Source: a virus
Taxonomy: Duplodnaviria; Heunggongvirae; Uroviricota; Caudoviricetes
Virus record (IMG/VR): IMGVR_UViG_3300043399_000371
Location: 100,285-164,284 of that record
DNA: 64,000 bases
Direction: 5' to 3' (one strand)
Made by a program: the position numbers and the translations under genes. Below the pieces are notes generated by a model that was not told the origin of the DNA, ran no database searches, and worked only from the letters and a program-made list of their open reading frames with translations. Below are positions 16,877 to 34,478 of the stretch, in pieces. The number at the start of each line of letters is the position of its first letter. The stretch's first letter is position 1.

Positions 16877-16877
16877 A

Positions 16878-17654: not shown

Positions 17655-17661
17655 ATAATTT

Positions 17662-17739: not shown

Positions 17740-17747
17740 TAACTGTT

Positions 17748-19495: not shown

Positions 19496-19959
19496 CTTTT
19501 TAGTGTTTTATATCTATCTGCTGCGTAAGATGCTGCAAATGCTCTAGGTTTAACCATTGGAATTACATTGCAAGTTCCTTTGATATAACCAATAGCTTCA
19601 TTTACAACACAAGATGACCCATGAACTTCATTTGGATTGATGTCTAGGTGGACTTCAACGTCACGGTCTTCCAATACATCAGCAAGTTTTAGATACATTT
19701 CCGAAACTTTATAAGCTTCGTTCATTAATCGGTATCGTGGTTTGTCTTGTTTTTGGTCATAATCCCTTTCGCGGATAATTTCACCAAAAACTTTACAACC
19801 ATTTTTACCATTCATATGAACAACGATAGCAATAATGTAATCTGCATACCATTGACCATTTGATTTAAAACGTTCGGAATCACACCCAAGATAAATTTTA
19901 GTCTCAGGTGACTGAGAATCGATGAACATTTTTACTTCTTCTAAATTTATCTTAGACAT
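19489..19959 (-). CDS. YkuK/DUF458-like RNase H-fold protein
   Basis: Blocks IYLGCDSER, YIIAIVVH, HLDINPNEVHGS and IPMVKPRAFAASYAAD recall B. subtilis YkuK. This is from memory. Confidence 0.45.
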   Translation of the reverse strand: MSKINLEEVKMFIDSQSPETKIYLGCDSERFKSNGQWYADYIIAIVVHMNGKNGCKVFGEIIRERDYDQKQDKPRYRLMNEAYKVSEMYLKLADVLEDRDVEVHLDINPNEVHGSSCVVNEAIGYIKGTCNVIPMVKPRAFAASYAADRYKTLKSA

Positions 19960-19980
19960 GATAACCCCTTTTTTATTGTG

Positions 19981-20053
19981 CTACGGTGGAGGGATTCGAA
20001 CCCCCAACAACTGATTTTGGAGATCAGGACTCTTCCAGTTGAGCTACACCGTA
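19981..20053 (-). tRNA. tRNA-Trp(CCA), CCA not encoded
   Basis: Acceptor TACGGTG/CACCGTA, anticodon stem CTGAT/ATCAG, loop CTCCAAA, T-arm GGGGGTTCGAATCCCTC. Confidence 0.75.
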
Positions 20054-20063
20054 ATTGAAAAAA

Positions 20064-20139
20064 TGGAACCTCTTGAGAGAATCGAACTCACATTCCCAGA
20101 TTCGTATTCTGGAGTCCTAGTCCGTTGAACGAAAGAGGT
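20064..20139 (-). tRNA. tRNA-Arg(ACG)
   Basis: Acceptor ACCTCTT/AAGAGGT, anticodon stem CCAGA/TCTGG, loop ATACGAA, T-loop TTCGATT (T-T mismatch at 50:64). Confidence 0.65.
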
Positions 20140-20334
20140 TTAGTTGATAAGATATTTGTATAATTGAACTAACTTTTCACCATAAGCACCTATAATAGTT
20201 AAAAGACTAAAAATAGTTACTAGACTCAAAGCAATCCACTTATTCGAATCGTTTGATGTAGATAAGGCTATGGCAAATATTTCATTGCCCAATATTCGTA
20301 TCTTTATTTCGTATGTTTTCTGTTGGTTTTCCAC
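20140..20334 (-). CDS. possible small membrane protein
   Basis: 64-aa hydrophobic ORF. Overlaps the next ORF by 53 nt. Confidence 0.25.
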   Translation of the reverse strand: MENQQKTYEIKIRILGNEIFAIALSTSNDSNKWIALSLVTIFSLLTIIGAYGEKLVQLYKYLIN

Positions 20335-20569
20335 TATAAATATTCACTTTAAATATTTTTGGAAAATTCTTTCTATGTATATTACAAATACGAATTATAC
20401 ACAAGTAATCATGTACTGGAAATCCTTGTCTCTTCCCGTCTCTCGTATCATATAATAGATTTAAAAAATACTGATGCATATCATAACTACCCCACAACAA
20501 CATAATTTTTTTTGCTATATGTGGATATTTTATTGATATCACATCAAATTCTTTTGTTTGTATAAACAT
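20282..20569 (-). CDS. hypothetical protein
   Basis: 95-aa ORF. Confidence 0.4.
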   Translation of the reverse strand: MFIQTKEFDVISIKYPHIAKKIMLLWGSYDMHQYFLNLLYDTRDGKRQGFPVHDYLCIIRICNIHRKNFPKIFKVNIYSGKPTENIRNKDTNIGQ

Positions 20570-20581
20570 TTTTTTATAGAT

Positions 20582-20938
20582 TTATCTCTGACCACCAAAA
20601 TAAGGTTTTGCCAGATTTTCTGTTATGAGCAAATCGTTTACAGACACCGATTCATCCAGATTTAGATACAATTTTGCTAAGTATCTTCCATATTTATCTG
20701 TTTTAAATGTTTGTATGTATATCTTCTTATCAAGAACTAAATCTATTAATCTTTGTTTAGCTTTTTTGGCTAGTTCTCTTTCTTCTGCAACAGATGATGT
20801 TAATTCTTCAGTATCAATCCCATAAAGTCTTAACCTCTGATGGGAATATACAGAAAAACCAAGATCAACAGAAACATCAATAGTGTCTCCATCCACCACA
20901 TTTAATACTTTTGCTTCAAACAAATAATACATTTTCAT
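20582..20938 (-). CDS. staphylococcal-nuclease (SNase)-like thermonuclease
   Basis: VDGDTI, RLRLYGIDTEE, DKYGRYLA and the C-terminal ENLAKPYFGG block match the SNase signature. Confidence 0.7.
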   Translation of the reverse strand: MKMYYLFEAKVLNVVDGDTIDVSVDLGFSVYSHQRLRLYGIDTEELTSSVAEERELAKKAKQRLIDLVLDKKIYIQTFKTDKYGRYLAKLYLNLDESVSVNDLLITENLAKPYFGGQR

Positions 20939-20958
20939 CTCCGAAATCTGATTATTTG

Positions 20959-21612
20959 TTATTTATGTTTCACTCTTCCTCTTCTCCATCCTTCTGGTAT
21001 AGGATCTGTTTTCAATATCTTTTTATTTTTTTCACCATCAGTAATCCACATAGTTCCATATTGAGAATTTTTTGTTGGATCGGAAAGTCTTTTTTTAGCT
21101 TTTTCAGACATATTTCTTTTAGTTTCTTCACTATGAGTCTTACCAACAAAAGCACCATTAGGATATTTTTTCTTAAATTGTTCAAAACCTTTTTTAGCAT
21201 TGTTTCTTATGTGTTCTCTAAACAGAGAATCAGATTTATATTTTTCTTTCCATTTTTTTATTCTATCTTCATGGCTAATCAAAGAATTTAATCTTTTTTC
21301 TGTCAAATACTTTTCAGGATTTGTGTTTATCCAATCCCAACCACCAAATCCACCTATTTTAAGATTATATGTATTTTCAGTAGCAAGAAATTCTTCATTA
21401 ACAATTTCAGCTTCTTTTTGGTACATAAGTTCTGGTGTATCAAAAACAAACAATATTTCTTTGGTAAAATTTTCTATACCATATTTTTCTATTGCTTTTT
21501 TAAGATACTTACCGGAACCCACATATTTGTCATCCAGATCTTTGGTCTTATGGCTTCCAATATAGAACTTGCCATCAATCTGATTTGTTATCTTATAAAT
21601 TGTGTAGTACAT
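20959..21612 (-). CDS. GIY-YIG homing endonuclease (Seg-like) with C-terminal NUMOD-like DNA-binding region
   Basis: N-terminal YTIYKITNQIDGKFYIGS is a GIY-YIG motif. The basic C-terminus carries WITDG. Confidence 0.75.
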   Translation of the reverse strand: MYYTIYKITNQIDGKFYIGSHKTKDLDDKYVGSGKYLKKAIEKYGIENFTKEILFVFDTPELMYQKEAEIVNEEFLATENTYNLKIGGFGGWDWINTNPEKYLTEKRLNSLISHEDRIKKWKEKYKSDSLFREHIRNNAKKGFEQFKKKYPNGAFVGKTHSEETKRNMSEKAKKRLSDPTKNSQYGTMWITDGEKNKKILKTDPIPEGWRRGRVKHK

Positions 21613-21667
21613 AGTAAACTCCTATGTACATATTTATAAGTTTCGAGTCTTGACATCAACTCAAGGG

Positions 21668-21742
21668 TCCGTGTGGCAAGATTCGAACTTGCGGTTTCTA
21701 CGCCCCAAACGTAGCGACTTGACCGGACTAGCCTACACACGG
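21668..21742 (-). tRNA. tRNA-Pro(TGG), CCA not encoded
   Basis: Acceptor CCGTGTG/CACACGG, D-arm GGCT/AGTC, anticodon stem CTACG/CGTAG, loop TTTGGGG, T-arm GCAAGTTCGAATCTTGC. Confidence 0.75.
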
Positions 21743-22402
21743 TTATTCTTGTTCATAAAATTTGTTTAGTACATTCTGATCAGTACCATAACACCATGAA
21801 GGACGTTTTTCAATTTCTTGCCAATCAACATAAAATGGTTGTTTATTTTTTTGTATTACATTTATATTGCTTTTTTCACCATCACTAGCTGAAACATTAA
21901 ATGATATATTTTCTATCTCACCACGAAATTCTGATGTAATCAAATATGTCAATGCTGGCAAATCATTTTTATATCTTGATGTTTGTGTGTGTTTCTTGTT
22001 TCTTGGATCGAATTCCCTAGAATCATGAAATAACATAAAACCACCATTTTTCAATTTACTCCAAATGATTCTAGCAATTTTATGTCTTGCTGGAACTAAA
22101 CCATCTATGAACGCCACATCTATTTCAGAAATCTGTTTCACGATTCCCTTTAAGTCAGAAGATATAATAGCATTTTGAAAATTTAACTGTTTAATTCTTT
22201 CGCTTACAGTAGAAACCCATTGTGGATTGTGTTCATAAGCGAATACTTGTTTTGAAGTTTGTGCGAAGATCATAGTGCTTCCACCAGACCCATGCTCAAA
22301 AACAACTTCAGAATTTGATCCATATTTTGCAAGAACATCAGCATCTTGTAAACTGAGATCACCAACCCATCTAATATTTTGAAGATATTTAAATCTACTC
22401 AT
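21743..22402 (-). CDS. putative class-I SAM-dependent methyltransferase (start moved to internal Met because the listed start lies inside tRNA-Leu)
   Basis: VFEHGSGGST is a glycine-rich motif I. RBS agga lies 8 nt upstream of the M26 ATG. The track ORF 21743..22477 would overlap the tRNA. Confidence 0.4.
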   Translation of the reverse strand: MSRFKYLQNIRWVGDLSLQDADVLAKYGSNSEVVFEHGSGGSTMIFAQTSKQVFAYEHNPQWVSTVSERIKQLNFQNAIISSDLKGIVKQISEIDVAFIDGLVPARHKIARIIWSKLKNGGFMLFHDSREFDPRNKKHTQTSRYKNDLPALTYLITSEFRGEIENISFNVSASDGEKSNINVIQKNKQPFYVDWQEIEKRPSWCYGTDQNVLNKFYEQE

Positions 22403-22419
22403 TATTTTCCTATATCTTG

Positions 22420-22501
22420 TACGGATGGTGAGATTCGAACTCACACGCCTTTCGACACGGACTTCTAAGGACCGCACGGCTACCAGTTACGTCATATCCG
22501 C
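22420..22501 (-). tRNA. tRNA-Leu(TAG), type II, CCA not encoded
   Basis: T-arm GTGAGTTCGAATCTCAC, acceptor GCGGATA/CATCCGT (one mismatch), 3-bp D-stem, anticodon loop CTTAGAA, long variable arm. Confidence 0.55.
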
Positions 22502-22938
22502 TTTTTATTATTTTTCCCCGAATTTGTACTTGTTTGTGCGTGACAATTCGGACAAATAATTCGTAAATTTTTCATATCATTATTATAATGATTACCATCT
22601 ATATGATCAAGTTCAATCGGAACTTTTTGACTCATCCATTCTGATATATTACACACTTCACATCTATGTTCTTTTATACCTTCTCTAATCAATTTTAATT
22701 TTAATTTGTGAGCAGACACATAGTTGTTTTTAATATATTCAGAAGCACTTATATAAGTTTTATCGTTTTTAGATCCTCTAGAACCCTGATTACCGACATA
22801 TGTTATGCCCATAATTTGAAGATAACGTTCTAGAGTTTCTGGTTTACATTTTAAAATTTTGCAAATGTAAGCTTTAGGGCGATTTTCCGTTATCCAAATA
22901 AGAATATCTTGTTTTTTATCTAAAATATCATTTCGCAT
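22492..22938 (-). CDS. HNH homing endonuclease
   Basis: C-terminal ELDHIDGNHYNNDMKNLRIICPNCHAQ. Confidence 0.75.
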   Translation of the reverse strand: MRNDILDKKQDILIWITENRPKAYICKILKCKPETLERYLQIMGITYVGNQGSRGSKNDKTYISASEYIKNNYVSAHKLKLKLIREGIKEHRCEVCNISEWMSQKVPIELDHIDGNHYNNDMKNLRIICPNCHAQTSTNSGKNNKKRI

Positions 22939-23017
22939 ACAATTCCTTTTTATAGTATACTCAATGTATTTATAACTATTGCCTCTTCCAATTGGGCTAC
23001 ATCCGCATTTAATTCTT

Positions 23018-23133
23018 TGGCGCTGCTGCTAGGATTCGAACCTAGATCTCTTCCTTGACATGGAATTTTAGTATGCTGTACGTATCCATTACTGGATCAC
23101 TTTTTAAGTATCCTACCATTAGACGACAGCAGC
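23018..23133 (-). pseudogene. interrupted tRNA-Asp(GTC)-like element: 5' and 3' halves separated by ~41-nt insert carrying a GNRA hairpin
   Basis: 3' half: anticodon stem ATTCC/GGAAG with loop ATGTCAA, T-arm CTAGGTTCGAATCCTAG, then CAGCAGC-G-CCA. The pairing 5' half GCTGCTG-TC-GTCT-AATGGTA lies ~115 nt away. The insert contains ATCCA-GTAA-TGGAT. Confidence 0.4.
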
Positions 23134-23135
23134 TT

Positions 23136-23215
23136 TGGTGCGAATGGCCGGGATCGAACCGGCACGACCTTTCGGTCGGCAGATTTTCGTACCACTATAG
23201 CTTTCGCTACCCATA
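23136..23215 (-). pseudogene. tRNA-like element (perfect T-arm, Ser-like variable arm CGACCGAAAGGTCG) lacking a resolvable D-arm and anticodon arm
   Basis: T-arm GCCGGTTCGATCCCGGC then CATTCGC-A-CCA. The only 5' partner is GCGAAAG, which makes it 67 nt, too short for a tRNA. Confidence 0.35.
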
Positions 23216-23316
23216 TTTAGTAAACATAGTTTGTGGTCTGGACTTTATCTTTACCATACTATTATAAATAGTTTAGGTAGTGCCTGTCAAGTCTCTACAC
23301 CTCCAAAGGGAATCAT

Positions 23317-23781
23317 ATGAAATTACGCAAATATACGAAAGAGCAATTAGAACAAGCGGTTTTAACATCAGTATCTCTTAGACAAGTCTTGGAAAAACTA
23401 AACGTTAAAATGGCAGGAGGTAATTATTCCACTCTTAAAAAAGCAATCAAGTATTACAATCTAAATACAGATCATTTTACAGGAATGAATCTTAAAGGTA
23501 GATCATTACCACCAAGACGAAGACCAATCAAAGATTATCTAACAAAAGAGTCTGGTGTACAATCAAATAAACTCAGAAAATATTTACTTGATGAAAATGT
23601 ATTCCAACATCAATGTTCATCTTGTAATCTAACTTCATGGTTAGATTCAAAAATTCCACTTGAACTCGATCATATAGATGGTGATAACATGAATAACGAA
23701 TTATCCAATCTTCGACTTCTTTGTCCGAACTGTCATGTTCTAACACCAACGTATAGAGGCAAAAACATACGAAAAACCTAA
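23317..23781 (+). CDS. HNH homing endonuclease
   Basis: ELDHIDGDNMNNELSNLRLLCPNCHVLTPT. This is the only plus-strand gene within the minus-strand tRNA cluster. Confidence 0.75.
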   Translation: MKLRKYTKEQLEQAVLTSVSLRQVLEKLNVKMAGGNYSTLKKAIKYYNLNTDHFTGMNLKGRSLPPRRRPIKDYLTKESGVQSNKLRKYLLDENVFQHQCSSCNLTSWLDSKIPLELDHIDGDNMNNELSNLRLLCPNCHVLTPTYRGKNIRKT

Positions 23782-23782
23782 G

Positions 23783-24029
23783 TTTGGCTCGGGGTTGGCA
23801 TTTTAAAGCTTTCTCCGAATTTAAGCACATTCACACTAGAAGTTTCCTATCTAGGTGCTCAATTTACTTAAGTCTGCTGCGGCTACCAATTACGCCACAC
23901 TCGCAAAAATCAACAGGATACTTTTTAGATGTCTGCTCTACCAATGAGCTATTCTTCCAAGCGGAAAAAGTTGGGGTCGAACCAACTACCTAACATTTAT
24001 GTTAGAATTGCTGCGTGTATCCTAAAACT
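23783..24029 (-). other. cluster of degenerate tRNA-like pieces (D-arm AGCTCATTGGTAGAGC; T-arm GTTGGTTCGACCCCAAC; 6-nt-loop anticodon-like hairpin)
   Basis: Canonical arm motifs are present, but no complete cloverleaf with a paired acceptor could be built by hand. Confidence 0.35.
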
Positions 24030-24104
24030 TGGTGCCTCTTGCCGGTTATGCTCCAACGACTACGGGTTACAAATCCGTTGTTTTTCTAATTAAACTAAAG
24101 AGGC
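24030..24104 (-). tRNA. tRNA-Thr(TGT) with non-canonical T-loop (AGCATAA)
   Basis: Acceptor GCCTCTT/AAGAGGC, D-arm GTTT/AAAC, anticodon loop TTTGTAA. CCA is encoded. Confidence 0.5.
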
Positions 24105-24458
24105 TATAAAATCTTTATTTATATTTTCTATGGGTACAACTATAAGTTTTATGTTATTTTGATTAATAACACTATCTATCTTTTCTTTATCCTTTATTAT
24201 AAGGTATTCATTTTTTGTATCGAAAAAAACATTACCAACTTTAAAATCTGGATAATATCTATGATGAATACCGTTTTTGTCTTTCCAAATAAATGGTTTT
24301 GGCCTTTCCCATTCTACTTCAAGTTCCTCAAGAATAGTTGCAAACATTATTTCATATGAACTATGTAGGTAAACATCACTACCATCTTTTTTACGGAACC
24401 AAATTTTATTTTTAGAAGTATGACCACCTAAGTTATTTTTGATAGCCAAATCTCTCAT
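24090..24458 (-). CDS. PD-(D/E)XK nuclease-fold protein (YYPDF...DTK), possible homing-type nuclease
   Basis: Shares the Y(Y/F)PDF motif with ORF 1..393. Its last 5 codons overlap the tRNA-Thr 5' end. Confidence 0.45.
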   Translation of the reverse strand: MRDLAIKNNLGGHTSKNKIWFRKKDGSDVYLHSSYEIMFATILEELEVEWERPKPFIWKDKNGIHHRYYPDFKVGNVFFDTKNEYLIIKDKEKIDSVINQNNIKLIVVPIENINKDFIASLV

Positions 24459-24923
24459 TTTTTCTTTGAATTCTGGTGGGTGTCCAGTTAAAGCCCTTCC
24501 CCATTTTCTTCCTATAAACTGAGGTCTTGCAATATTAGGATTATCTTCTTATGTCAATCCTTTATTCCAAGGAGATTTCCCTTTTCTTCCATTTTGGATT
24601 TTTCTGTTTGGATTATCTTTACATCTTTGTTCGTGTTGCAATAAAGATGAATTTTTTCCATACTCTTTTAAACAGTATTTACATTTTAACATATATTATA
24701 TTTTATAATAATTCTTTTACGACTGACTCCTTGTTTTGTTCCGCCTCTCTTATTCGGAACCATTTCACCCTTGAATACTAGGCCGGCAGGGTCAGAGGTA
24801 AGTAGTTATAGTTGATACGTGCTAGTTGCTGTGTTGTCGGACTCGCACCGTTAGCTTTCTAATTGTATGCCTACAACTGATTTCTCAACATCTACAACAA
24901 AGTGTCATGCGTAAAAGAACTAT

Positions 24924-24999
24924 TGGTGCCTGTAGTTGGGATCAAACCAACGACCTATCGGTTATCGACCGATTGCTCTATCAACTGAGCTATACAGGC
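24924..24999 (-). tRNA. tRNA-Ile(GAT)
   Basis: Acceptor GCCTGTA/TACAGGC, D-arm GCTC/GAGC, anticodon stem ATCGG/CCGAT, loop TCGATAA, T-loop TTTGATC. Confidence 0.65.
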
Positions 25000-25102
25000 A
25001 AACTTGGTCACAGATCAGTCTATGCCATCGGTTACTGCGGTAGCCGATTATTTTCAAGACAGGCAGAGGTGTGTTATTTAAGGCGCACAACATTTCCTAA
25101 AT

Positions 25103-25184
25103 TGGTGGGTTGGGTAGGAATCGAACCTACTTGCCGAAGCCACGGGGTTACAGCCCGCTGCCCTACCATTAGAGCATCCAACCC
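25103..25184 (-). tRNA. tRNA-Tyr(GTA) with variable-arm mini-hairpin
   Basis: Acceptor GGGTTGG/CCAACCC, anticodon stem GCGGG/CCCGT, loop CTGTAAC, variable arm GGCTTCGGCAA, T-arm GTAGGTTCGATTCCTAC. Confidence 0.7.
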
Positions 25185-25227
25185 ATGTTTCTACTATATC
25201 ACAACTTTACTACTGATGCAACATTTT

Positions 25228-25305
25228 TGGTAGTGATGGTTGGAATCGAACCAACACCATTCTTCCTTATGAGGGAAGCGCACAGACCATTTATGCTACA
25301 TCACC
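25228..25305 (-). tRNA. tRNA with CAT anticodon (Met or Ile2), copy 1
   Basis: Acceptor GGTGATG/CATCACT, anticodon stem CTTCC/GGAAG, loop CTCATAA, T-arm GTTGGTTCGATTCCAAC. Confidence 0.65.
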
Positions 25306-25310
25306 ATATT

Positions 25311-25389
25311 TGGCTCCGCATTAGGGAATCGAACCCTACTAGCCATTGATTAACAGTCAAGCCCATGCACCTTGCTCGGGTTCTGCGGA
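25311..25389 (-). tRNA. tRNA-Asn(GTT)
   Basis: T-arm TAGGGTTCGATTCCCTA, acceptor TCCGCAG/ATGCGGA (mismatch at 7:66), anticodon loop CTGTTAA in stem TTGA/TCAA. Confidence 0.55.
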
Positions 25390-25458
25390 ATCGATACTAC
25401 AGGTTAGCTTTATAACATTCCAATATGTTTTTTTATATTGCTGGACCTAACCTAAAAC

Positions 25459-25536
25459 TGGTTGCGGAGGATGGATTCGAACCACCGACCTTCAGCTTAT
25501 GAGGCTGACGAGATGACCAGACTTCTCTACTCCGCA
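25459..25536 (-). tRNA. tRNA with CAT anticodon (Met or Ile2), copy 2
   Basis: Acceptor TGCGGAG/CTCCGCA, D-arm GAGA/TCTC, anticodon stem TCAGC/GCTGA, loop CTCATAA, T-loop TTCGAAT. Confidence 0.65.
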
Positions 25537-25543
25537 ACAAAAC

Positions 25544-25620
25544 TGGTGGAAGATATCGGATTTGAACCGATCTGAATATCCGCATTGCAAGTGCGGCGAA
25601 CACCCCTAGCATTCCCATCC
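25544..25620 (-). tRNA. probable tRNA-Ala(TGC); 5' boundary and D-arm unresolved
   Basis: Anticodon stem CCGCA/TGCGG with loop CTTGCAA, T-arm ATCGGTTCAAATCCGAT, 3' ATCTTCC-A-CCA. No clean 5' acceptor partner was found. Confidence 0.4.
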
Positions 25621-25636
25621 CCCGAATTATTATATA

Positions 25637-25714
25637 TGGCGACTCAGACGGGATTCGAACCCGTGATATCTTGCTCGACAGGCAAGTGCATTAGACCAAC
25701 TATGCTACTGAGCC
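25637..25714 (-). tRNA. tRNA-Asp(GTC)
   Basis: Acceptor GGCTCAG/CTGAGTC, D-arm GCAT/ATGC, anticodon stem CTTGC/GCAAG, loop CTGTCGA, T-arm ACGGGTTCGAATCCCGT. Confidence 0.7.
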
Positions 25715-25809
25715 AAAAATGTTTCGCTGTCACGGCTTTTTGCGAAACTTCTCACGAAAGAATCTCTTGATTCCTTACCGTACCATTCGATGTGTGTGAG
25801 ATATTTTAA

Positions 25810-25893
25810 ACCATATTAAAGTAAACTAATCAGGTACACTATATAGTCTACGACAATCACTCAAGCTTATTGACTAGCATACTTTAATATGGT
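25810..25893. repeat. 12-nt inverted repeat ACCATATTAAAG / CTTTAATATGGT flanking ~60 nt
   Basis: Exact reverse complements at 25810..25821 and 25882..25893. On the minus-strand transcript they would form a 12-bp stem. Confidence 0.7.
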
Positions 25894-26003
25894 GACGGTA
25901 TAAGGAATCTATCTCCGTCTGTGCAGAAGTCATTTCAACCATCCTGCGAGGGTTGTCCACCATATAAAGGGTGAACCCGGTGTCCCCTGCGCCTCTGCAT
26001 CTA

Positions 26004-26103
26004 ACCATATTAAAATACACTAGTAAGAAGATCAATCCAATTGGCTGATGATTGCTTCTTTAGGTTGCCAAACCCGTAACTAACTAATGTACTTTAATAT
26101 GGT
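26004..26103. repeat. inverted repeat ACCATATTAAAA / CTTTAATATGGT; right arm includes the CCA end of tRNA-Lys
   Basis: 11/12 complementarity. The right arm at 26092..26103 overlaps the tRNA-Lys terminal ACCA. Confidence 0.65.
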
Positions 26104-26174
26104 ACGGGCAGAGGGATTCGAACCCACAACTTATCGGTTAAAAGCCGATTACTCTACCATTGAGTTATACCCGC
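26100..26174 (-). tRNA. tRNA-Lys(TTT)
   Basis: Acceptor GCGGGTA/TGCCCGT, D-arm ACTC/GAGT, anticodon stem ATCGG/CCGAT, loop CTTTTAA, T-loop TTCGAAT. Confidence 0.7.
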
Positions 26175-26321
26175 AAAATCTTACCACTCTTGTCACTATC
26201 CATAACAGGACTCCTTTTATTAATGGTTGGCATTACGAACTTTAGCCGTACTTCTAACGTGAGTACCGAAAATGTATCGTAGACACATCGTTTTCTTACG
26301 CCCACAAGGGATTTGAGGAAT

Positions 26322-26398
26322 TGGTGTCTCCAGAGGGACTTGAACCCACAACCAACGGCTTATGAGGCCGCTGCTCTGACCGATTGAGCTATAGAGAC
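26322..26398 (-). tRNA. tRNA with CAT anticodon (Met, fMet or Ile2), copy 3
   Basis: Acceptor GTCTCTA/TGGAGAC, D-arm GCTC/GAGC, anticodon stem GCGGC/GCCGT, loop CTCATAA, T-loop TTCAAGT. Confidence 0.65.
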
Positions 26399-26441
26399 TT
26401 AATCTTCAACAGTACGCATTATACAGGATCAACCAACTTTG

Positions 26442-27083
26442 TCAATAGGTCAAATGTTCATGTTGATTCTTAATTTTCTTCTTAAGCATCGTCTGAATTC
26501 CCGGATTCACTACTAATGCAGATTTCACCATTTCTTTACGAATAAAATTCCGCATGAATGATGTATCTTCATTACTAGGATCGTTAATATACACGATTTT
26601 CTTTCTCGATGCCCAATCAACAATTTCTTCTTTCTCTGTAATCAAGAAAGGTCGAACAACATTTTTATTACGATAAGGAATCAGTTTCGGTGTTCCATGT
26701 AGAGAACTCCAAATCCATGTTTCCAATACGTCACCAAGATGATGTCCAGTAACAACCATATCAAACTGACTAAGAAACTTATATCGTTCCTCTCGCCAAA
26801 ACTCTTCTTTACTTTGTTCTTTAGGTTTTGTCGAAGTCAATTTACCTACAACAAGAGGCAGAGAATTATTTTTACAGTAATGTGTAAGAAACAGTTCTGC
26901 TTCCTGTCCATGTTGTGTGCCGTGATTGAAATAAGCAACTTGTACTTCATGATTCCGTTTAAGGAAGTCTAGAACTACCATGCTATCAATACCACCAGAA
27001 CAAGCAACAGTAACTTTCCGTTGCACACCAAATAGCATTTTCAACATATTCAATATTCCTTTTAGGATACCATATTGAAACAC
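26442..27083 (-). CDS. tilS: tRNA(Ile)-lysidine synthetase TilS (catalytic N-type ATP-pyrophosphatase domain only); true start probably the internal Met at ~27047
   Basis: PP-loop VACSGGIDS, VTGHHLGDVLET (E. coli TilS: TAQHLDDQCET) and NDPSNEDTSFMRNFIR (DESNQDDSYDRNFLR). The listed GTG start lies inside an inverted-repeat stem. Confidence 0.7.
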   Translation of the reverse strand: MFQYGILKGILNMLKMLFGVQRKVTVACSGGIDSMVVLDFLKRNHEVQVAYFNHGTQHGQEAELFLTHYCKNNSLPLVVGKLTSTKPKEQSKEEFWREERYKFLSQFDMVVTGHHLGDVLETWIWSSLHGTPKLIPYRNKNVVRPFLITEKEEIVDWASRKKIVYINDPSNEDTSFMRNFIRKEMVKSALVVNPGIQTMLKKKIKNQHEHLTY

Positions 27084-27164
27084 ACTCTTTGCAAATATCC
27101 CACCGCTCCGGAACGGTTACAACGGGTCCAACGTCAGGGGTTGGCGAATGTATTTCAATATGGT
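27069..27164. repeat. perfect 12-nt inverted repeat ACCATATTGAAA / TTTCAATATGGT; right arm includes the tRNA-Glu ACCA end, left arm abuts the TilS RBS
   Basis: Exact reverse complements at 27069..27080 and 27153..27164. Confidence 0.7.
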
Positions 27165-27236
27165 ACTCGGAGTGGGAATTGAACCCGACATTTCATCCTT
27201 GAAAGGGATGCGTCCTAACCACTAGACGACCCGAGC
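27161..27236 (-). tRNA. tRNA-Glu(TTC)
   Basis: Acceptor GCTCGGG/TCCGAGT (G-U pairs at both ends), D-arm GTCT/GGAC, anticodon stem CATCC/GGATG, loop CTTTCAA. T-stem is weak. Confidence 0.6.
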
Positions 27237-27296
27237 ATATTTTATATAAATTTTTAAAGAACGTTGCTGACTTGTTTCGTTCAGCGCATGGTGTGA

Positions 27297-27325
27297 ACTA
27301 TACTGGAGTCGCACACACTTGTCAA
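27297..27325 (-). promoter_or_regulatory. consensus sigma70 promoter TTGACA-N17-TATAGT ~55 nt upstream of tRNA-Glu
   Basis: Minus-sense ggtgTTGACAagtgtgtgcgactccagTATAGTtcac. Confidence 0.6.
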
Positions 27326-27341
27326 CACCACCAACAAAAAA

Positions 27342-27366
27342 CCCCAAGATTTTTTAGGTCTTGGGG
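27342..27366. terminator. rho-independent terminator hairpin CCCCAAGAT-TTTTTAG-GTCTTGGGG with A-run/T-run flanks (copy 1 of 2)
   Basis: Identical sequence recurs at 30342..30366. Confidence 0.7.
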
Positions 27367-27391
27367 TTTCTTTTTTAAGTTTAGTTAGATT

Positions 27392-28105
27392 TTATGCAAA
27401 CCTACCTGCAACTTTTCCTAAGAAACCACCAACTTTAGATGCTCCGGTATTGATAGCTGTCTTTACTTTATTCTTGACATTTTCAACACCTGTATCTATA
27501 CGTTTTGCTAATACACCGCGTCTGCCCTCAACATTACCGGCAGTAGCACTAGCAGATTTTCTCTTTGTCTCAGCAGTTTTATATGCTTCTTTTGCTTTTG
27601 CTGCCCTATCCTGAACTGTCTTAGACTTATTAACAGCAAATGCATACTTTGCTCTCTCTAATGGATTTTTACCAACAGGCGCAGTTCTGGCAGCATCTGC
27701 GGCAGATTTGGCCTTTACACCCATTTGAGTTGACTTTTCTTTTGCTTGTTGTGCTTGAGATGTAGCTTTCTGTTTTGCTCTATTTGCTAAGAACCCTTTA
27801 ATACCATATCTAGCACCAGCAACAAATGTACCAATTGACTCATCCAAAAGAACATCATACAGTTCTTCATACAATGGTGTATTAATATCATATCCAGTAA
27901 TTGCTTCTAAAGCAGACTCTTTCAAAGTTGGATACTTAAAGTTTTCCTCAAAATAATCCATAAGAATAGATGTGATATATGCATCTTCTTCTGTCATAAC
28001 ATAATCTTCATCTACATCATAGTTTTCTTCGATAAACTGATCAAGAATAGTAAAGAAAAGTTCTTGTCTTTCTTGAATTTGCTCTTCTGTAAGTTGTTGT
28101 AACAT
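27392..28105 (-). CDS. hypothetical protein with acidic N-half and Ala/Lys-rich low-complexity C-half
   Basis: 237-aa ORF. Confidence 0.5.
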   Translation of the reverse strand: MLQQLTEEQIQERQELFFTILDQFIEENYDVDEDYVMTEEDAYITSILMDYFEENFKYPTLKESALEAITGYDINTPLYEELYDVLLDESIGTFVAGARYGIKGFLANRAKQKATSQAQQAKEKSTQMGVKAKSAADAARTAPVGKNPLERAKYAFAVNKSKTVQDRAAKAKEAYKTAETKRKSASATAGNVEGRRGVLAKRIDTGVENVKNKVKTAINTGASKVGGFLGKVAGRFA

Positions 28106-28136
28106 AAAAATCCCTATAGCGTTATATTATTTATAC

Positions 28137-29903
28137 TTATTTAGCTTTCTTTTTCTGAATCAAAATTGGTTTTGGTGCAGAATATTCTTTACCTCTTGCC
28201 TTTTCTTGTTCTTCTGGTCTATCTATCTCATACTCACCATTATGTTGTTTAGCGTGTTCAATATGATCATCACTAACATCATGCGTAAAATTAGAATGGT
28301 GTTGAACATCGCTAGTGGAAGTTGTTGGTGTTGTTACTAAAATAGCACCAGCATCTTTACCATTTTTAGATTTGAATCTTTCTTTTGGTAAAAATTCATT
28401 ATCCTTAAATCTAGAATCTGTTGGAATTTTATGACCATCAACATCAACTAATCTTGGATGAAGAATATGTTGTTTTTGATAATCGTATCTTCTAGCTTTA
28501 CCATCATCACCAACTACAGTTCTATGACCGTAATGTGCTTTATCTGGAGTGGTTGGTCTACCTTCACCGTCATAATGTCCCTCTGGTCCTTCAGCTTTTT
28601 CACTATCAGATAATTCATGTTCTTCTCTACCTTCAGACCAATACTTAGCATGAGTTACGTGTTGTTGGAATTTTTTATCCATTTCTCCACCACGTTTCAT
28701 ATTTGTTACCATATATGAATTTTTTGGTGGTGTCATATTTCCTTCATCATTTTTAATATCTTCACCTGAAGATTGTGTAGCATGAATTGTCTGACGAACA
28801 CGAATTCTATCTTTTTTCTTATTTTCAGTAATTTCTTTTCCGTGTTTCACTTTTGGACCAGTATTAGAATATGTTACATGATAACCATTTTCTGGATCAT
28901 GTAATTCTGTCGTTTTTCCATAAGAATTAGCAATAATAGCTGGTCTTCCTTCTGTTGCACGTTGTCTGTTTAAATGTTTAATAACGTGTCTTGAACTACG
29001 ATCAGTTTCATCCACAACATTAGGTCTAAAAAGAAAACGTTTTTTTCTTTTATCTGCTGCATCTGCACGATTTCTTAGTGAATGTGTGTGGGCTAAAACC
29101 CAATCGCTTGTCATTGCTGGATCGTGTTTAGCTTGTTCATGACAGGCTCTTCTCACAGCAGCATTTACATATTGTGATTCTGCTTTAGGCGCAAAACAAG
29201 TTCCACGCGATGTATCAACAACACCTTCAGCATCAACACCACCACCACAACCTTCTGTCTGTGCTGGACAAGTATTTAAAATGTGATGTCTCTGATTTTC
29301 TCCGTGTCCTGATGTGTAAACAGCATGACCAGCAACACCTTTAGATGCTGCTGCTTCAAAAGTTCTACCTTGTTCATCATGTTCATGTTTTACTGTATCT
29401 GTCTTTTCGCCTTCATCTGTTGTATCTTTACTGTCTAGGTGTCTTGCTTTATGTAAACGTTCAATAGCTTCTTTTTCTGCTTTAATTTGTTCTTGTTTTG
29501 GTTTTGAAAAATGGTCTTCTAAAACTTTTTTATGCACACTTTCAATTTGACCAAGACCTAAAGGTGGACGATGTTCGCCACCATAAATTTTTGCTCTTGC
29601 TTCATTCCTTTCATTCATACCCATCGCACCAGATTTTTCACTACCTTCCCACATATGTCTAGGAACTACAATTCCTTTAGCTTTTGATTTACCGTCACCA
29701 TCATGTTTAAAAAGTAAACGTTTTGGGTTAGGATGATCATGAACGGATTCTTTAATCATATCGGCATTTTTGATTGGAATATAATCATTAACACCAAAAA
29801 GAGAATTTTGTACATTATGTTCTTGGGTATATTGTGGATGTGTCTCATCCATATCAATAGTGTGTATATCAGACTCTTTCAAAAATGTTTTAAATGATAA
29901 CAT
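28137..29903 (-). CDS. CTS-bearing large His/Asp/Lys-rich protein with Cys cluster; candidate packaged internal protein
   Basis: N-terminus MLSFKTFLKESD is CTS-like. 588 aa, very His-rich. Contains CPAQTEGCGGG...TCF...ACHEQ. Confidence 0.5.
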   Translation of the reverse strand: MLSFKTFLKESDIHTIDMDETHPQYTQEHNVQNSLFGVNDYIPIKNADMIKESVHDHPNPKRLLFKHDGDGKSKAKGIVVPRHMWEGSEKSGAMGMNERNEARAKIYGGEHRPPLGLGQIESVHKKVLEDHFSKPKQEQIKAEKEAIERLHKARHLDSKDTTDEGEKTDTVKHEHDEQGRTFEAAASKGVAGHAVYTSGHGENQRHHILNTCPAQTEGCGGGVDAEGVVDTSRGTCFAPKAESQYVNAAVRRACHEQAKHDPAMTSDWVLAHTHSLRNRADAADKRKKRFLFRPNVVDETDRSSRHVIKHLNRQRATEGRPAIIANSYGKTTELHDPENGYHVTYSNTGPKVKHGKEITENKKKDRIRVRQTIHATQSSGEDIKNDEGNMTPPKNSYMVTNMKRGGEMDKKFQQHVTHAKYWSEGREEHELSDSEKAEGPEGHYDGEGRPTTPDKAHYGHRTVVGDDGKARRYDYQKQHILHPRLVDVDGHKIPTDSRFKDNEFLPKERFKSKNGKDAGAILVTTPTTSTSDVQHHSNFTHDVSDDHIEHAKQHNGEYEIDRPEEQEKARGKEYSAPKPILIQKKKAK

Positions 29904-29948
29904 AAAATATTTTCCTATAAATAAAGTATTTCTTCTATTTATAAGATT

Positions 29949-30023
29949 TGGAGTGCGTAGTAGGAATCAAACCTACCTAAAACTGTTTTGCAGACAGTTG
30001 CCTCATCATTCGACCATACGCAC
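29949..30023 (-). tRNA. tRNA-Cys(GCA)
   Basis: Acceptor GTGCGTA/TACGCAC, anticodon stem ACTGT/ACAGT, loop CTGCAAA, T-arm GTAGGTTTGATTCCTAC. Confidence 0.65.
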
Positions 30024-30028
30024 ATAAT

Positions 30029-30124
30029 TGGCGGTGTGTAATGGATTCGAACCATTGGGGCAGTTTATTAGACTACCCAACTTCTTAGCAGGAAGCCGCC
30101 TTCGACCAACTCAGCCAACACACC
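30029..30124 (-). tRNA. tRNA-Ser(GCT), type II with very long variable arm
   Basis: Acceptor GGTGTGT/ACACACC, 3-bp D-stem, anticodon stem GCTTC/GAAGT, loop CTGCTAA, T-arm AATGGTTCGAATCCATT. Confidence 0.6.
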
Positions 30125-30133
30125 TTAAATTTT

Positions 30134-30224
30134 TGGCGGAAGTTAAAGGATTCGAACCCTCACCGGCGACTAACCGATGGCGACGGTTTTCAAGACCGTT
30201 TGTACACCATGTACGCTAACTTCC
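30134..30224 (-). tRNA. tRNA-Ser(TGA), type II
   Basis: Acceptor GGAAGTT/AACTTCC, anticodon stem ACGGT/ACCGT, loop CTTGAAA, long variable arm, T-loop TTCGAAT. Confidence 0.6.
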
Positions 30225-30229
30225 AATTT

Positions 30230-30304
30230 TGGCAGGGATGTCGGGATTCAAACCCAACCTAACAGAGTCAAAGTCTGTTGTGCTAATCGCTACACTACAC
30301 CCCA
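30230..30304 (-). tRNA. tRNA-Gln(TTG)
   Basis: D-arm GTGT/GCAC, anticodon stem ACAGA/TCTGT, loop CTTTGAC, T-arm TTGGGTTTGAATCCCGA. Position 1:72 is a U-U mismatch. Confidence 0.6.
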
Positions 30305-31576: not shown

Positions 31577-32389
31577 TTATTTGTTGATCATTAGTCCAGT
31601 CATGTTACTTGGAACGATGATTGTCTGAACTTTACCGTTTTTGATACCCTCAGAGATGTTTAGTGCTGCTTGGGCATTCATGAAGGCAATTGAACTAGCA
31701 CTATTATTTGCTAGTGCTGCCATACGTCGAGCCTCTGCTTCAGCCGTTTTTACTTCAACCTCTTTTTGTAGAAGTTCGTTTTTAGCACGAACAAGTTCAT
31801 TTGCACTTTTTACCACACTATCAGCAGGAAGAATATTTCGAACTAGAACCTGATTGATAGTAATAGCACCATCAAGTTTCTCTTCACGTAGAGAAGCAAG
31901 CATAATTTCACGCACCTTGGTTTCGATAGCCTGACGATTATCATTCATGGTTAGTGCTTCGTATTCTCTTGATGCTTTATAAATTGCGTTTCGTGCAGAT
32001 TGAACAATATAGTTGTACATCAGAAAAACGTCACCATCATGATTTGCGTGGAATGCCTTCGATTTCTGACTATAGAGTTCCGAAACCTGAGAAGGATTGA
32101 TGTTGTAAATCACCACAGCATCAAAATCTTTCATCGTGCTATTATCTTTGGCTAGTGGAGTAAGATCATTTACCTGAACATTAACATCTTTGACAGGAAA
32201 AGTGATGATACTGCCCACGATGGTTTGATTAAAAGAACCCGGTAGAAGTTCACCTTGCTGAATTTGTTTATCAAATCCAACACGAACACCGACTTCACCA
32301 GTTTCGATACGCGCACAACCAACTGCGGTAGCCACAGCAAGACCAAGAACGGAGAATTTCACAAATTTATTCATAATATATTTCCTCAA
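31577..32389 (-). CDS. SPFH/band-7 (stomatin/HflKC-like) lipoprotein
   Basis: Lipobox LAVATAVGC. SPFH-like core ...VIYNINPSQV... C-terminal coiled coil. Confidence 0.6.
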   Translation of the reverse strand: MRKYIMNKFVKFSVLGLAVATAVGCARIETGEVGVRVGFDKQIQQGELLPGSFNQTIVGSIITFPVKDVNVQVNDLTPLAKDNSTMKDFDAVVIYNINPSQVSELYSQKSKAFHANHDGDVFLMYNYIVQSARNAIYKASREYEALTMNDNRQAIETKVREIMLASLREEKLDGAITINQVLVRNILPADSVVKSANELVRAKNELLQKEVEVKTAEAEARRMAALANNSASSIAFMNAQAALNISEGIKNGKVQTIIVPSNMTGLMINK

Positions 32390-32571
32390 AAAATTGCAAC
32401 AATCAAAAGAACCAAACTCAAACTAGCAAGTGCGATAATGATAGCAAACCCAAGATCCCATGTCAACTTATAAATTTGCTTTCTGGTCATGTTTTTGAAC
32501 ATTATCACACCAAGATAGATCAAAAGACAGAATAAAAGAAAGAAAAAAATGGCATTTATCATACTAGTCAC
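32386..32571 (-). CDS. small 2-TM membrane protein, NfeD-like partner of SPFH gene
   Basis: 61 aa with two hydrophobic helices. 4-nt overlap with the SPFH start. Confidence 0.5.
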   Translation of the reverse strand: MTSMINAIFFFLLFCLLIYLGVIMFKNMTRKQIYKLTWDLGFAIIIALASLSLVLLIVAIF

Positions 32572-33589
32572 TCTCTTTCATCAAAAATTTGTTACTAATT
32601 GCCTTAAAATGGATTTCTGGAACCTCAATACACTTAAAAACAATACCCTCACGTTCTTTTTTATCATTTAGTACACTCTTAGACTCAGCAAATTGAAGAA
32701 TATCTTCAAGAGTTTCGTTAAAAAGTTTCCAATCAAGAGCAATTACAGGAGCATATTGTAGTTGAAGCTTGTGACAAAACTCATTTCGGTCATAAGCATT
32801 CATGTATTTTCCAGTTTTCACATCATAAACGTCGAAAACACGGAATTCGAAGTCAGGAAAATTGTAATAATTCCCCTGAACACCGGGACCAATCAGTTCA
32901 CCTTGAATAGCAATACCAAGATGACCCCTAAGTTTTTCTTCAACATTGTATTTTTTAGCAATTTTCCAGAATGCATTGTTTTCATCTTCTTTTAGATCAA
33001 GATTCCGAGAACAAACATGGAAAATACCTTCAGTATCCATATACATTGTGCATGAAGAACCCTCAAGTTTTTCTGTAATTTCCCAAGTGTAACCCTTTTC
33101 CCTCCAAATCTCAAGTTCTTTTTTAAGATTCTGAATACGTTCCTGATCAGTCTTAGGTACAAGTGTTGGAAAATTACCTTTTACCTGTCCAGCAAGTTGA
33201 GCAGGAATTGGTTTTTCCCATTTTTGAATACCTAGAATTTCAGTAACATCCATGCCTTCTAGATTATCTTCTTGAGCAATTTGTGCAGTAAATGGTTCAA
33301 GAGGAAGCAAAAGACCCTGACTAATTTGACCACGAAGTTTGACAGTTCGTAGACGTTCACCTTTTACACCATTAAATTCCCGTGGTTCCTTACCTTTACT
33401 CAGAAATGGTGCAAGTTCAGTTGGTATCCAAGAATCAATTTCACAATACACGGCAAGATCATCAATTTTATACTCACCCTTTTTAACCACAACTTTCCAA
33501 CCACCGACAACTGCTACTTCAATAGCATCAGCTTCAGGAATCGGTTGAATATCATCAATTTTTCTTACAGTAGCAAGTTTTCGCATCAT
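32564..33589 (-). CDS. ATP-dependent RNA ligase, DraRnl/Rnl5 (DRB0094) family
   Basis: N-terminal MMRKLATVRKIDDIQPIPEADAIEVAVVGGWKVVVKKGEYKIDDLAVYCEIDS matches the family N-domain. Nucleotidyltransferase motif I is EKLEGSS (KxDG-type). Confidence 0.65.
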   Translation of the reverse strand: MMRKLATVRKIDDIQPIPEADAIEVAVVGGWKVVVKKGEYKIDDLAVYCEIDSWIPTELAPFLSKGKEPREFNGVKGERLRTVKLRGQISQGLLLPLEPFTAQIAQEDNLEGMDVTEILGIQKWEKPIPAQLAGQVKGNFPTLVPKTDQERIQNLKKELEIWREKGYTWEITEKLEGSSCTMYMDTEGIFHVCSRNLDLKEDENNAFWKIAKKYNVEEKLRGHLGIAIQGELIGPGVQGNYYNFPDFEFRVFDVYDVKTGKYMNAYDRNEFCHKLQLQYAPVIALDWKLFNETLEDILQFAESKSVLNDKKEREGIVFKCIEVPEIHFKAISNKFLMKESD

Positions 33590-33992: not shown

Positions 33993-34478
33993 TCACACCT
34001 CCAAACTCACATCATTCATAACAAACCAAAGAGGTGTATCGCGTCCGGTCCATTTAGCGAAATCCTTCTTTGCACCAATATAATACTTACGATATGCAAC
34101 TACAGGATCAGAGTCTTTATACTCATCCGGCATAGCTTGAGCAAATTCAGTAAGCCCAATGTCTGGAATGGTATCAGGACAGTCAAACTCTGTCAAGAAA
34201 TATTGATCACTTTTATGTTCTCGATTGTACCTATAAGTATACTCATCACACAGAGCAAGACCATGAGCCTTAAGCCACTCATAGTTTTGTTTAGACCTAC
34301 CTGCCCATAGAGTAGATGGATGATTGGCATGAGTAGGTTTATAAGTAGCTGGCTTACCGTGCTTGTGGTTTACAGTAGCAAGAATCTGAGCCGACTCTAA
34401 AAGCATTTTTACTACGTGCTTATCACATAGCATCTGTGCAGCAACAATAGGATCTTGATGTACATGGAAAATATTCAT
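33993..34478 (-). CDS. hypothetical protein (weak resemblance to T4 endoV/DenV N-terminus noted, unconfirmed)
   Basis: 161-aa ORF, MNIFHVHQDPIVAAQMLCDKH... Confidence 0.45.
   Translation of the reverse strand: MNIFHVHQDPIVAAQMLCDKHVVKMLLESAQILATVNHKHGKPATYKPTHANHPSTLWAGRSKQNYEWLKAHGLALCDEYTYRYNREHKSDQYFLTEFDCPDTIPDIGLTEFAQAMPDEYKDSDPVVAYRKYYIGAKKDFAKWTGRDTPLWFVMNDVSLEV

Follow-up and report, generated by a model that had tools for sequence, protein, structure and literature searches.

A putative heal-and-seal RNA repair module of three separate proteins, with a second, Rnl5-family RNA ligase, in an uncultured phage

Phages are thought to answer host defences that cleave tRNA either by carrying replacement tRNAs or by repair, and such defences, PrrC and RloC among them, are an active topic of research; recent reports have added effectors of the retron and PARIS types, nucleases of the OLD family, and collateral cleavage by Cas13. 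In phage T4, RNA ends are healed by Pnkp, which unites a kinase with a phosphatase of the HAD/DxDxT type on one polypeptide, and are sealed by the ligase Rnl1, a second ligase being Rnl2. Bacterial Pnkp, as in the Pnkp–Hen1 system of Clostridium thermocellum, brings the same end-healing and sealing chemistries together with a λ-phosphatase-like metallophosphoesterase module and an Rnl4-type ligase domain that is activated by Hen1, and the fungal and plant enzyme Trl1 has an Rnl6 ligase domain and a cyclic phosphodiesterase of the 2H family. RNA repair genes follow a recognised pattern in large phages, with calcineurin-like phosphatases as a rare choice for the phosphatase (PMC7824862), and the ligases divide the work, breaks in loops being sealed by Rnl1 and Rnl4 and nicks in duplexes by Rnl2- and Rnl5-type enzymes (PMC4408790). 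Here we describe a stretch of 64,000 nucleotides from a virus of the Caudoviricetes (positions 100,285 to 164,284 of the IMG/VR record IMGVR_UViG_3300043399_000371; the whole stretch is hereafter called the window), which encodes an Rnl1-like RNA ligase (ligase 2), a binuclear, calcineurin-like metallophosphoesterase (MPP), a compact P-loop kinase, and an RNA ligase of the Rnl5 family (ligase 1). We consider it likely that the kinase, MPP, and ligase 2 constitute a complete heal-and-seal pathway for breaks in RNA that bear 2′,3′-cyclic phosphate (or 3′-phosphate) and 5′-OH ends, which would serve to reverse the damage done by host ribotoxins or anticodon nucleases, and that the Rnl5 ligase stands apart from it.

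The set formed by the kinase, MPP, and ligase 2 is a functional analogue of T4 Pnkp and Rnl1, with several differences in its parts. Where T4 has both healing activities on one Pnkp, the window has two separate small proteins, and a binuclear MPP takes the place of the HAD/DxDxT phosphatase. Ligase 2 is 89 residues shorter than T4 Rnl1 (285 versus 374 residues), lacks most of the C-domain associated with tRNA specificity, and carries Asn for D101 and Thr for K119, while the kinase is without the R38 of the T4 enzyme. The second ligase is an Rnl5 enzyme here and Rnl2 in T4, so that the pairing of ligase 2 with Rnl5 parallels that of T4 Rnl1, for loop breaks, with Rnl2, for duplex nicks (division of labour as in PMC4408790). 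In comparison with bacterial Pnkp, the three chemistries are the same, but they reside on three separate and non-orthologous proteins, the profile of MPP reaches the Aquifex protein aq_1665 and not the λ-phosphatase type, and the window lacks a Hen1-activated ligase domain of the Rnl4 type. Trl1 differs in using a 2H-family cyclic phosphodiesterase where the window has MPP. The Pnkp1–Rnl–Hen1 system is likewise among the nearest relatives of the set in kind.

A short Rnl1-like ligase, a metallophosphoesterase, and a compact kinase

Ligase 2 (60530..61387, minus strand, 285 residues), the putative sealing enzyme, was identified as an Rnl1-like ATP-dependent RNA ligase by Pfam, PHROGs, hhalign, and fold comparison. 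It matches the Pfam family RNA_lig_T4_1 (36.2 bits; cutoff, 28.3) and phrog_562 (E = 7e-44), the latter match stopping at position 273 of the 377 positions of the profile, and hhalign pairs it with T4 Rnl1 at 94.9% probability over T4 residues 48–252 only. Both the adenylyltransferase fold and the Rnl1-type N-terminal subdomain are present. In the N-terminal subdomain, Arg54, Lys75, and Phe77 of T4 Rnl1 correspond to Arg41, Lys58, and Phe60 of ligase 2; Lys99 and Gly102 of motif I correspond to Lys80 and Gly83, Glu159 of motif III to Glu134, Glu227–Gly228 of motif IV to Glu206–Gly207, and Lys240/Lys242 of motif V to Lys220/Lys222, all of these positions being invariant in the family. Careful alignment thus places the nucleotidyltransferase lysine in both ligases of the window (Lys80 here and Lys174 in ligase 1). 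Motif I reads K80-x-N82-G83 (KxNG), with Asn82 where T4 has Asp101; this is the arrangement of Trl1, in which the Asn of motif I (TLKENG) reaches the catalytic metal via a water molecule (PMC6379707). Downstream of motif V, the invariant Lys230 and Arg234 are spaced in a manner resembling the proposed 2′-PO4-binding arginines of Trl1.

Over residues 224–283, the AF2 model of ligase 2 has nothing but short helices, a helical tail of ~60 residues, in contrast to Trl1, which has a distinctive C-domain that needs a 2′-PO4. The neighbours returned by the fold search are RNA ligases, the ligase domain of Trl1 (Trl1-LIG) being the second-best structural match, and the connection to T4 Rnl1 was seen by Pfam, hhalign, and the fold search only; sequence and profile searches against the PDB gave no ligase match, and the cadherin entries that they did return were judged spurious. 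Because the clades of RNA ligases are defined by their appended domains, and the C-terminal helical domain of Rnl1 is the one that confers specificity for the tRNA anticodon loop (PMC6379707), we call the enzyme Rnl1-like and not a strict member of Rnl1. An earlier note on this DNA, made from the sequence alone, had described it as an Rnl1-like ligase; the fold and the active site bear this out, whereas strict membership in Rnl1 does not hold, most of the C-domain and the lysine of motif Ia being absent.

MPP (59970..60533, minus strand, 187 residues) belongs to the aq_1665-like subfamily of binuclear metallophosphoesterases (Metallophos_2, 31.5 bits against a cutoff of 27; phrog_547, E = 1.5e-54), and its start overlaps the stop of ligase 2 as AAATGACT (ATGA). 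The metal-binding motifs are D8xH10, G55-D56, G81-N82-H83-D84, H118, and G136-H137-x-H139, and conservation of the metal ligands Asp8, His10, Asp56, Asn82, His83, His118, His137, and His139 over 65 homologues is 95% or higher. The gene call of JGI (L004:6903-7418, equivalent to 59970..60485 of the window) comprises 171 residues and starts after D8-x-H10; the start giving 187 residues is the correct one, because the shorter call would delete the first metal-binding motif. When the family profile was searched against the PDB, it reached Aquifex aq_1665 (PDB ID: 1xm7; E = 6e-24), the sole solved relative, whose function is unknown, and also ‘phosphohydrolase’ entries resembling GpdQ (E = 0.05). 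Binuclear MPPs that heal 2′,3′-cyclic phosphate ends have precedents in CthPnkp and λ phosphatase (PMC2190708). The coupling to ligase 2, together with the linkage and the analogous fusions described in the following section, suggests that MPP is an end-healing enzyme for 2′,3′-cyclic phosphate or 3′-phosphate RNA ends.

The kinase (46416..46841, minus strand) is a compact, polynucleotide-5′-kinase-like P-loop protein (AAA_33, E = 7e-11; phrog_2071, E = 6e-28), the true start of which is probably the ATG at 46826, giving a protein of 136 residues that matches the JGI call (P0121). The P-loop GxxGxGK[ST] (G15..G20-K21-S22-T23) and Asp40, the general base following strand β2, are invariant. On alignment with T4 Pnk, the P-loop falls on Lys15/Ser16 and Asp40 on Asp35, and Asp40 also aligns with the Asp of the ‘VNRD’ segment of mammalian PNKP, which is the best multi-motif match of the kinase profile among PDB sequences. 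The nearest folds are those of polynucleotide or tRNA kinases, not of nucleotide kinases, and we infer that the protein acts as a 5′-OH end-healing enzyme.

These three open reading frames (ORFs) and that of ligase 1 (32564..33589) are the four singled out by the earlier note, at coordinates that we confirm and all on the minus strand; they are not chance features, being long and matching families beyond curated thresholds. The translational coupling of ligase 2 to a calcineurin-like phosphoesterase, which the same note had proposed, is seen in the stop/start overlap, and its stand-alone polynucleotide-kinase-like P-loop protein is confirmed by the profile alignments and nearest folds.

In the pathway that we propose, the kinase (46416..46826) would phosphorylate the 5′-OH end, MPP (59970..60533) would produce a 3′-OH by opening and/or removing the cyclic or 3′ phosphate, and ligase 2 (60530..61387), adenylylated on Lys80, would then seal the break, for which the anticodon loop of a tRNA or another stem-loop is the most likely site. 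The substrates may be tRNAs or other RNAs of translation that have been cut by host ribotoxins, and the tRNA array of the phage could replace tRNAs that are damaged.

Linkage of the three families, and the unlinked Rnl5 ligase

For the analysis of gene linkage, the flanks of 80 IMG/VR loci containing a homologue of ligase 2 (37–63% identity) were scanned. A kinase gene was located within 3 kb of the ligase gene in 65 of the 80 loci, an MPP gene in 56, and both in 49, always on the ligase strand and with median gaps of 125 nt (kinase) and 259 nt (MPP); by our own estimate, a random gene in a genome of ~150 kb would lie within 3 kb by chance ~4% of the time. The gene order was MPP–ligase–kinase in 23 loci, kinase–ligase–MPP in 18, and otherwise in 8, and this variation argues against simple inherited synteny. 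After de-replication of the 80 loci into 26 lineages at 55% ligase identity, the partners were found within 3 kb in 22 lineages for the kinase, in 21 for MPP, and in 19 for both.

The kinase and the ligase are joined in a single polypeptide in 10 of the 80 loci, and kinase–ligase proteins measure 420–550 residues. An exhaustive search with the ligase 2 profile (E ≤ 1e-30) yielded matches that, clustered at 50% identity, gave 436 representatives, and the ten long members that were checked included four kinase–ligase fusions (445–551 residues) and three kinase–Metallophos–ligase fusions (701–765 residues). The trifunctional proteins (P0305/P0341/P0347) have the same domain order as bacterial Pnkp, and a Pnkp-like architecture that is built on an Rnl1-like ligase; the gene for one trifunctional fusion (L177:3080-5317) is surrounded by closely packed genes that run in one direction, an array that looks phage-like and lacks Hen1. 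Kinase–ligase fusions of 515 residues (the P0291 cluster) occur on contigs of 300–560 kb, which are of megaphage size. Orthology of the fused kinase and MPP domains to the kinase and MPP of the window was rejected, no BLASTP similarity being detectable, and in the fused MPP there is a signature, GDIVDRG...GNHD, that is typical of λ-phosphatase-type enzymes. The ligase family therefore keeps the same functional partners while swapping non-orthologous versions of them, as is expected if the partnership itself is under selection. The linkage in most lineages and the natural fusions also back the earlier proposal that end healing is split here, with an MPP instead of a HAD phosphatase and a separate kinase.

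In the nearest relatives (64–67% identity in ligase 2), the kinase gene is directly upstream of the ligase gene, and two relatives (L007 and L175) contain a cluster in which the kinase, the ligase, and MPP are followed by some small ORFs and then by a second MPP and a DUF2828/DUF7788 protein. In the window the same parts are scattered, with DUF2828 at 17.7 kb, the second MPP (MPP2) at 43.2 kb, the kinase at 46.4 kb, and the MPP–ligase pair at 60 kb. Homologues are likewise adjacent or clustered in phi92 (gp096/gp097), in Justusliebigvirus and related phages, and in Ralstonia phage RSP15 (ORF094/097/098), with identities of 42–49% for ligase 2, 31–50% for MPP, and 31% for the kinase, whereas the kinase gene of the window is displaced by 13 kb. 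The phi92-like phages label the pair ‘phosphoesterase’ and ‘putative RNA ligase / RNA repair’. In RSP15, the kinase, ligase, and MPP genes are clustered beside tRNA genes; the annotation of this phage wrongly calls the ligase a ‘metallophosphoesterase’ and names the kinase ‘NEDD4-binding protein’.

MPP2 (43155..44006, minus strand, 283 residues) is a second, larger calcineurin-like phosphoesterase (Pfam Metallophos, E = 3e-11; phrog_1649), and it adjoins a phosphatase of the PTP/DSP family (PTP-like; 42629..43102, minus strand; ‘Swiss Army Knife’ PTP-SAK match), the two being situated 2.4–3.8 kb downstream of the kinase; neither was in the earlier note. In RSP15 (ORF091, E = 7e-29) and in L007 (E = 2e-29), a homologue of MPP2 is situated next to the ligase cluster, and L175 has a Metallophos gene of similar size (253 residues) at the same position. 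As core components both phosphatases were rejected, each being near ligase 2 in only 4 of the 80 loci, although the closest relatives show synteny for MPP2, which is possibly an accessory component. The DUF2828/DUF7788 (vWA-like) protein (17748..19184, minus strand; phrog_850, ‘RNA-binding protein’; weak vWA match) is encoded within the tRNA array of the window, and in L007 and L175 it follows the kinase–ligase–MPP–MPP2 island; it may be a scaffold for RNA repair. The likeness to Ro60 that had been suggested for a protein of this phage applies to it at the level of architecture only (phrog_850 and a vWA-like C-terminus), there being no TROVE or Ro60 match at the sequence level, and no Y-RNA-like RNA was found by Rfam at gathering thresholds.

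Ligase 1 (32564..33589, minus strand, 341 residues) is an RNA ligase of the Rnl5 family (DraRnl/NgrRnl), as had been read earlier from its N-domain and its KLEGSS motif I. The N-domain (Pfam PF21189, PHA02142 OB-fold; residues 5–97, E = 2.3e-31) precedes the catalytic nucleotidyltransferase domain (RNA_ligase PF09414, E = 1.3e-28), and the NCBIfam equivalog TIGR02306 (RNA_lig_DRB0094, after the Deinococcus DRB0094 ligase) matches the protein at 220.6 bits (cutoff, 151.15). Residues 2–341 align with residues 4–339 (of 340) of the Naegleria NgrRnl structure (PDB ID: 5cot; E = 3.4e-75), so that the alignment reaches both C-termini and leaves no C-terminal appendage, and the motif I lysine, Lys174 (KLEGSS), corresponds to Lys170 of NgrRnl (KLDGSS), the documented nucleophile (PMC4408790). 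With full-length homology to DraRnl and NgrRnl, the signature N-domain and nucleotidyltransferase domain, and the KLxG motif, there is no notable sequence difference from the family. Rnl5 enzymes seal 3′-OH/5′-PO4 nicks in duplexes with an RNA 3′-OH strand, and phage homologues were noted earlier by Unciuleac and Shuman (PMC4408790); the family is abundant in viral contigs, with 497 confirmed matches in IMG/VR and 341 phage records. Judging from its sequence, ligase 1 is probably an independent sealer of 3′-OH(RNA)/5′-PO4 nicks in duplex RNA or RNA:DNA. At 85 Rnl5 loci, a kinase gene was within 3 kb in two and an MPP gene in two, mostly where ligase 2 was also near. Ligase 1 is separate from the healing enzymes, and the single three-part toolkit of the earlier note should therefore be redrawn as a three-gene heal-and-seal module (kinase, MPP, and ligase 2), which stands, plus an independent sealer of duplex nicks, which is not linked to it.

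Downstream of ligase 1, and connected by overlapping stops and starts, are a hydrophobic ORF of 61 residues (32386..32571, minus strand) and then an SPFH/Band-7 gene (31577..32389, minus strand; Pfam, E = 5.5e-19), an arrangement that accompanies the Rnl5 ligase in this window. SPFH modules have been proposed as scaffolds for RNA repair. An SPFH gene is located within 8 kb of Rnl5 in 19 of the 85 viral loci and is adjacent in only 2–3; with adjacency so rare, and with shared ancestry or synteny able to explain the association, a functional Rnl5–SPFH operon was rejected.

Alternative readings of the module

A pathway for RNA breaks is supported by the families and folds to which the proteins belong, by active sites that are intact, and by the coupling, conserved linkage, and fusion of the genes, with the substrates, the end chemistry of MPP, and the counter-defence role being inferred; the following observations weigh against it. 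Ligase 2 is without the lysine of motif Ia, which contacts the β–γ bridge of ATP and probably also the RNA 5′-PO4 (Lys119 in T4 Rnl1 and Lys169 in Trl1), and has an invariant Thr102 at this position, in ‘STTGS’; it is also without most of the T4 Rnl1 C-domain, as described above. Arg38 of the T4 kinase, which contacts the acceptor nucleotide, has no equivalent in the kinase, where a nearly invariant Phe43 is found instead, and the kinase gene is 13.1 kb away from the ligase 2–MPP pair in the window, so that co-regulation is not evident. No λ-phosphatase or CthPnkp phosphatase chain was retrieved with the MPP profile from the PDB, the aq_1665-like subfamily being uncharacterised; no host anticodon nuclease was identified; and no biochemistry for the kinase, MPP, ligase 2, or close homologues was found in the literature searched, the coverage of which was incomplete. 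Finally, a DNA ligase gene within 5 kb of ligase 2 in 38 of the 80 loci leaves room for a role at DNA ends. In that role, the kinase and MPP would clean 5′-OH/3′-phosphate nicks in DNA, in the manner of mammalian PNKP, for the ATP-dependent DNA ligase encoded at 55081..56370, and ligase 2 would act on DNA or RNA–DNA junctions in replication or repair. The DNA ligase genes of the 38 loci are on the ligase 2 strand, mammalian PNKP is the best multi-motif PDB match of the kinase profile, and MPP has a match, though a weak one, to NCBIfam PdeM, a ligase-associated DNA-damage endonuclease (23.7 bits, where the cutoff is as high as 150). The linkage, however, drops on de-replication to 7 of the 26 lineages within 3 kb and is never one of adjacency, which weakens the case for pairing the kinase and MPP with the DNA ligase; moreover, no fusion to a DNA ligase was found among the long members checked, and the fold neighbours of ligase 2 are RNA ligases. 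We regard repair of DNA ends as improbable.

The module might also process the phage's own RNAs, for example by joining them after removal of a tRNA intron or spacer, or by acting on a permuted tmRNA, a role resembling that of Trl1 in tRNA splicing; motif I of ligase 2 is a KxNG of the Trl1 type (cf. PMC6379707), and Trl1-LIG is the second-best structural match of the enzyme. The phage encodes 24 tRNA genes and a permuted tmRNA, and the RSP15 cluster lies beside tRNA genes, but introns were reported by ARAGORN in none of the 24 tRNAs, a tRNA gene is within 5 kb of ligase 2 in only 14 of the 80 loci, and no splicing endonuclease was detected among the ORFs scanned. Many carriers, the phi92- and rV5-like phages among them, are not known to require RNA splicing ligases, which also counts against such a maturation role, and we hold it to be similarly unlikely. 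It is very improbable that the genes are functionally unrelated, with MPP as an anti-defence phosphodiesterase for cyclic nucleotides or a phosphatase of a generic kind, the kinase as a nucleotide kinase, and ligase 2 as a tail-fibre attachment factor like T4 gp63. The ATGA coupling, the tight linkage in ~80% of lineages with varied order, and the kinase folds nearest to polynucleotide/tRNA kinases and not to nucleotide kinases all argue against independent functions, with which the two- and three-domain fusions are hard to reconcile; what can be said for them is that the MPP subfamily is uncharacterised, that neighbouring genes are of the anti-defence type (in the window, Gad2 and a Rap1a-like protein; in the relative L176, Acb3 next to the kinase), and that the PHROGs label of phrog_562 is ‘RNA ligase and tail fiber protein attachment catalyst’ and that of phrog_2071 simply ‘ATPase’.

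Heal-and-seal RNA repair is a kind of system already known from phages and bacteria, and its presence here is expected and no surprise; the RNA-repair annotation of the homologues in phi92-like phages and the general pattern in comparative surveys were likewise known. To these the window adds a scattered instance of the module in an uncultured phage that appears to carry both replacement tRNAs and repair. The comparative result outweighs the single genome, in that the kinase, MPP, and the short Rnl1-like ligase form a module that is conserved across hundreds of phage lineages and sometimes fused, a well-defined candidate for a second major RNA-repair pathway of phages beside T4 Pnkp/Rnl1, one that would also give the aq_1665-type phosphoesterases a function. 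We further suggest, tentatively and with considerable doubt, that short Rnl1-like ligases (without the T4-type C-domain or the motif Ia lysine, and with KxNG), combined with an aq_1665-type MPP and a mini-kinase, make up a biochemically distinct and very widespread heal-and-seal pathway. In that event, ligase 2 would represent a new clade of RNA ligases by the appended-domain criterion (Rnl1 to Rnl6). The end chemistry or the targets might then differ from those of T4, for example through a Trl1-like use of the 2′-phosphate (cf. Lys230 and Arg234), or through the repair of RNAs cleaved by nucleases of host defence that are not PrrC.

Phage, host, and surrounding genes

The source of the window is a T4-like phage of ~168 kb, the host of which is probably betaproteobacterial; the window matches the JGI metagenome contig Ga0485233_000013 (168,163 bp), and near-identical DNA relatives were absent among 50,697 phage records, so that the phage is no sequenced isolate. 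Its genes are those of a large T4-like phage and encode gp32, a gp59 loader, an RNase H of the T4 type, ClpP, PhoH, a T4 baseplate protein, and a DNA ligase that depends on ATP. The host is suggested by the type of the tmRNA and by the best protein matches, which are in phages of Limnohabitans and Ralstonia. The tmRNA (9867..10237, minus strand) is betaproteobacterial and permuted, i.e., in two pieces (Rfam beta_tmRNA, 138 bits; tmRNA_permuted, 128 bits), with the tag peptide ANDERFALAA according to ARAGORN, and is possibly a provision of the phage for ribosome rescue. The tRNA array mentioned in the earlier note comprises 24 genes (16509..30304, minus strand; ARAGORN and Rfam) and constitutes, as a context for the repair genes, an alternative route for keeping translation going.

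Within this array, a PP-loop ATPase (26442..27083, minus strand, 213 residues; Pfam ATP_bind_3, E = 4e-33) consists of the TilS-type catalytic domain only and directly adjoins one of three tRNAs with a CAT anticodon (26322..26398, 25459..25536, and 25228..25305). This arrangement fits a lysidine synthetase of the phage for its own tRNA-Ile2; the PHROGs label differs and is weakly QueC-like. The array also contains, on the minus strand, an RNaseH-like protein (19489..19959), a GIY-YIG/NUMOD3 homing-endonuclease-like ORF (20959..21612), and a class I methyltransferase (Methyltransf_24; 21743..22477).

The region just downstream of MPP (55081..59834, minus strand) is occupied, according to precomputed Pfam matches, by genes of the anti-defence type and redox genes. 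It encodes a Rap1a-like ORF (59484..59834), rubrerythrin and rubredoxin (57364..57813 and an adjacent small ORF), a Gad2 homologue (56488..57054), and the ATP-dependent DNA ligase (55081..56370), all on the minus strand, and also contains a faint Lar_restr_allev match and DUF6915. Just upstream of the genes around the Rnl5 ligase is a pyrimidine-dimer glycosylase resembling T4 endonuclease V (33993..34478, minus strand; Pyr_excise, E = 2.6e-11), and an ORF at 35278..36324 (minus strand) gives a sub-threshold match to the ADP-ribosyltransferase family ADPrib_exo_Tox (21.4 bits; cutoff, 23.4).

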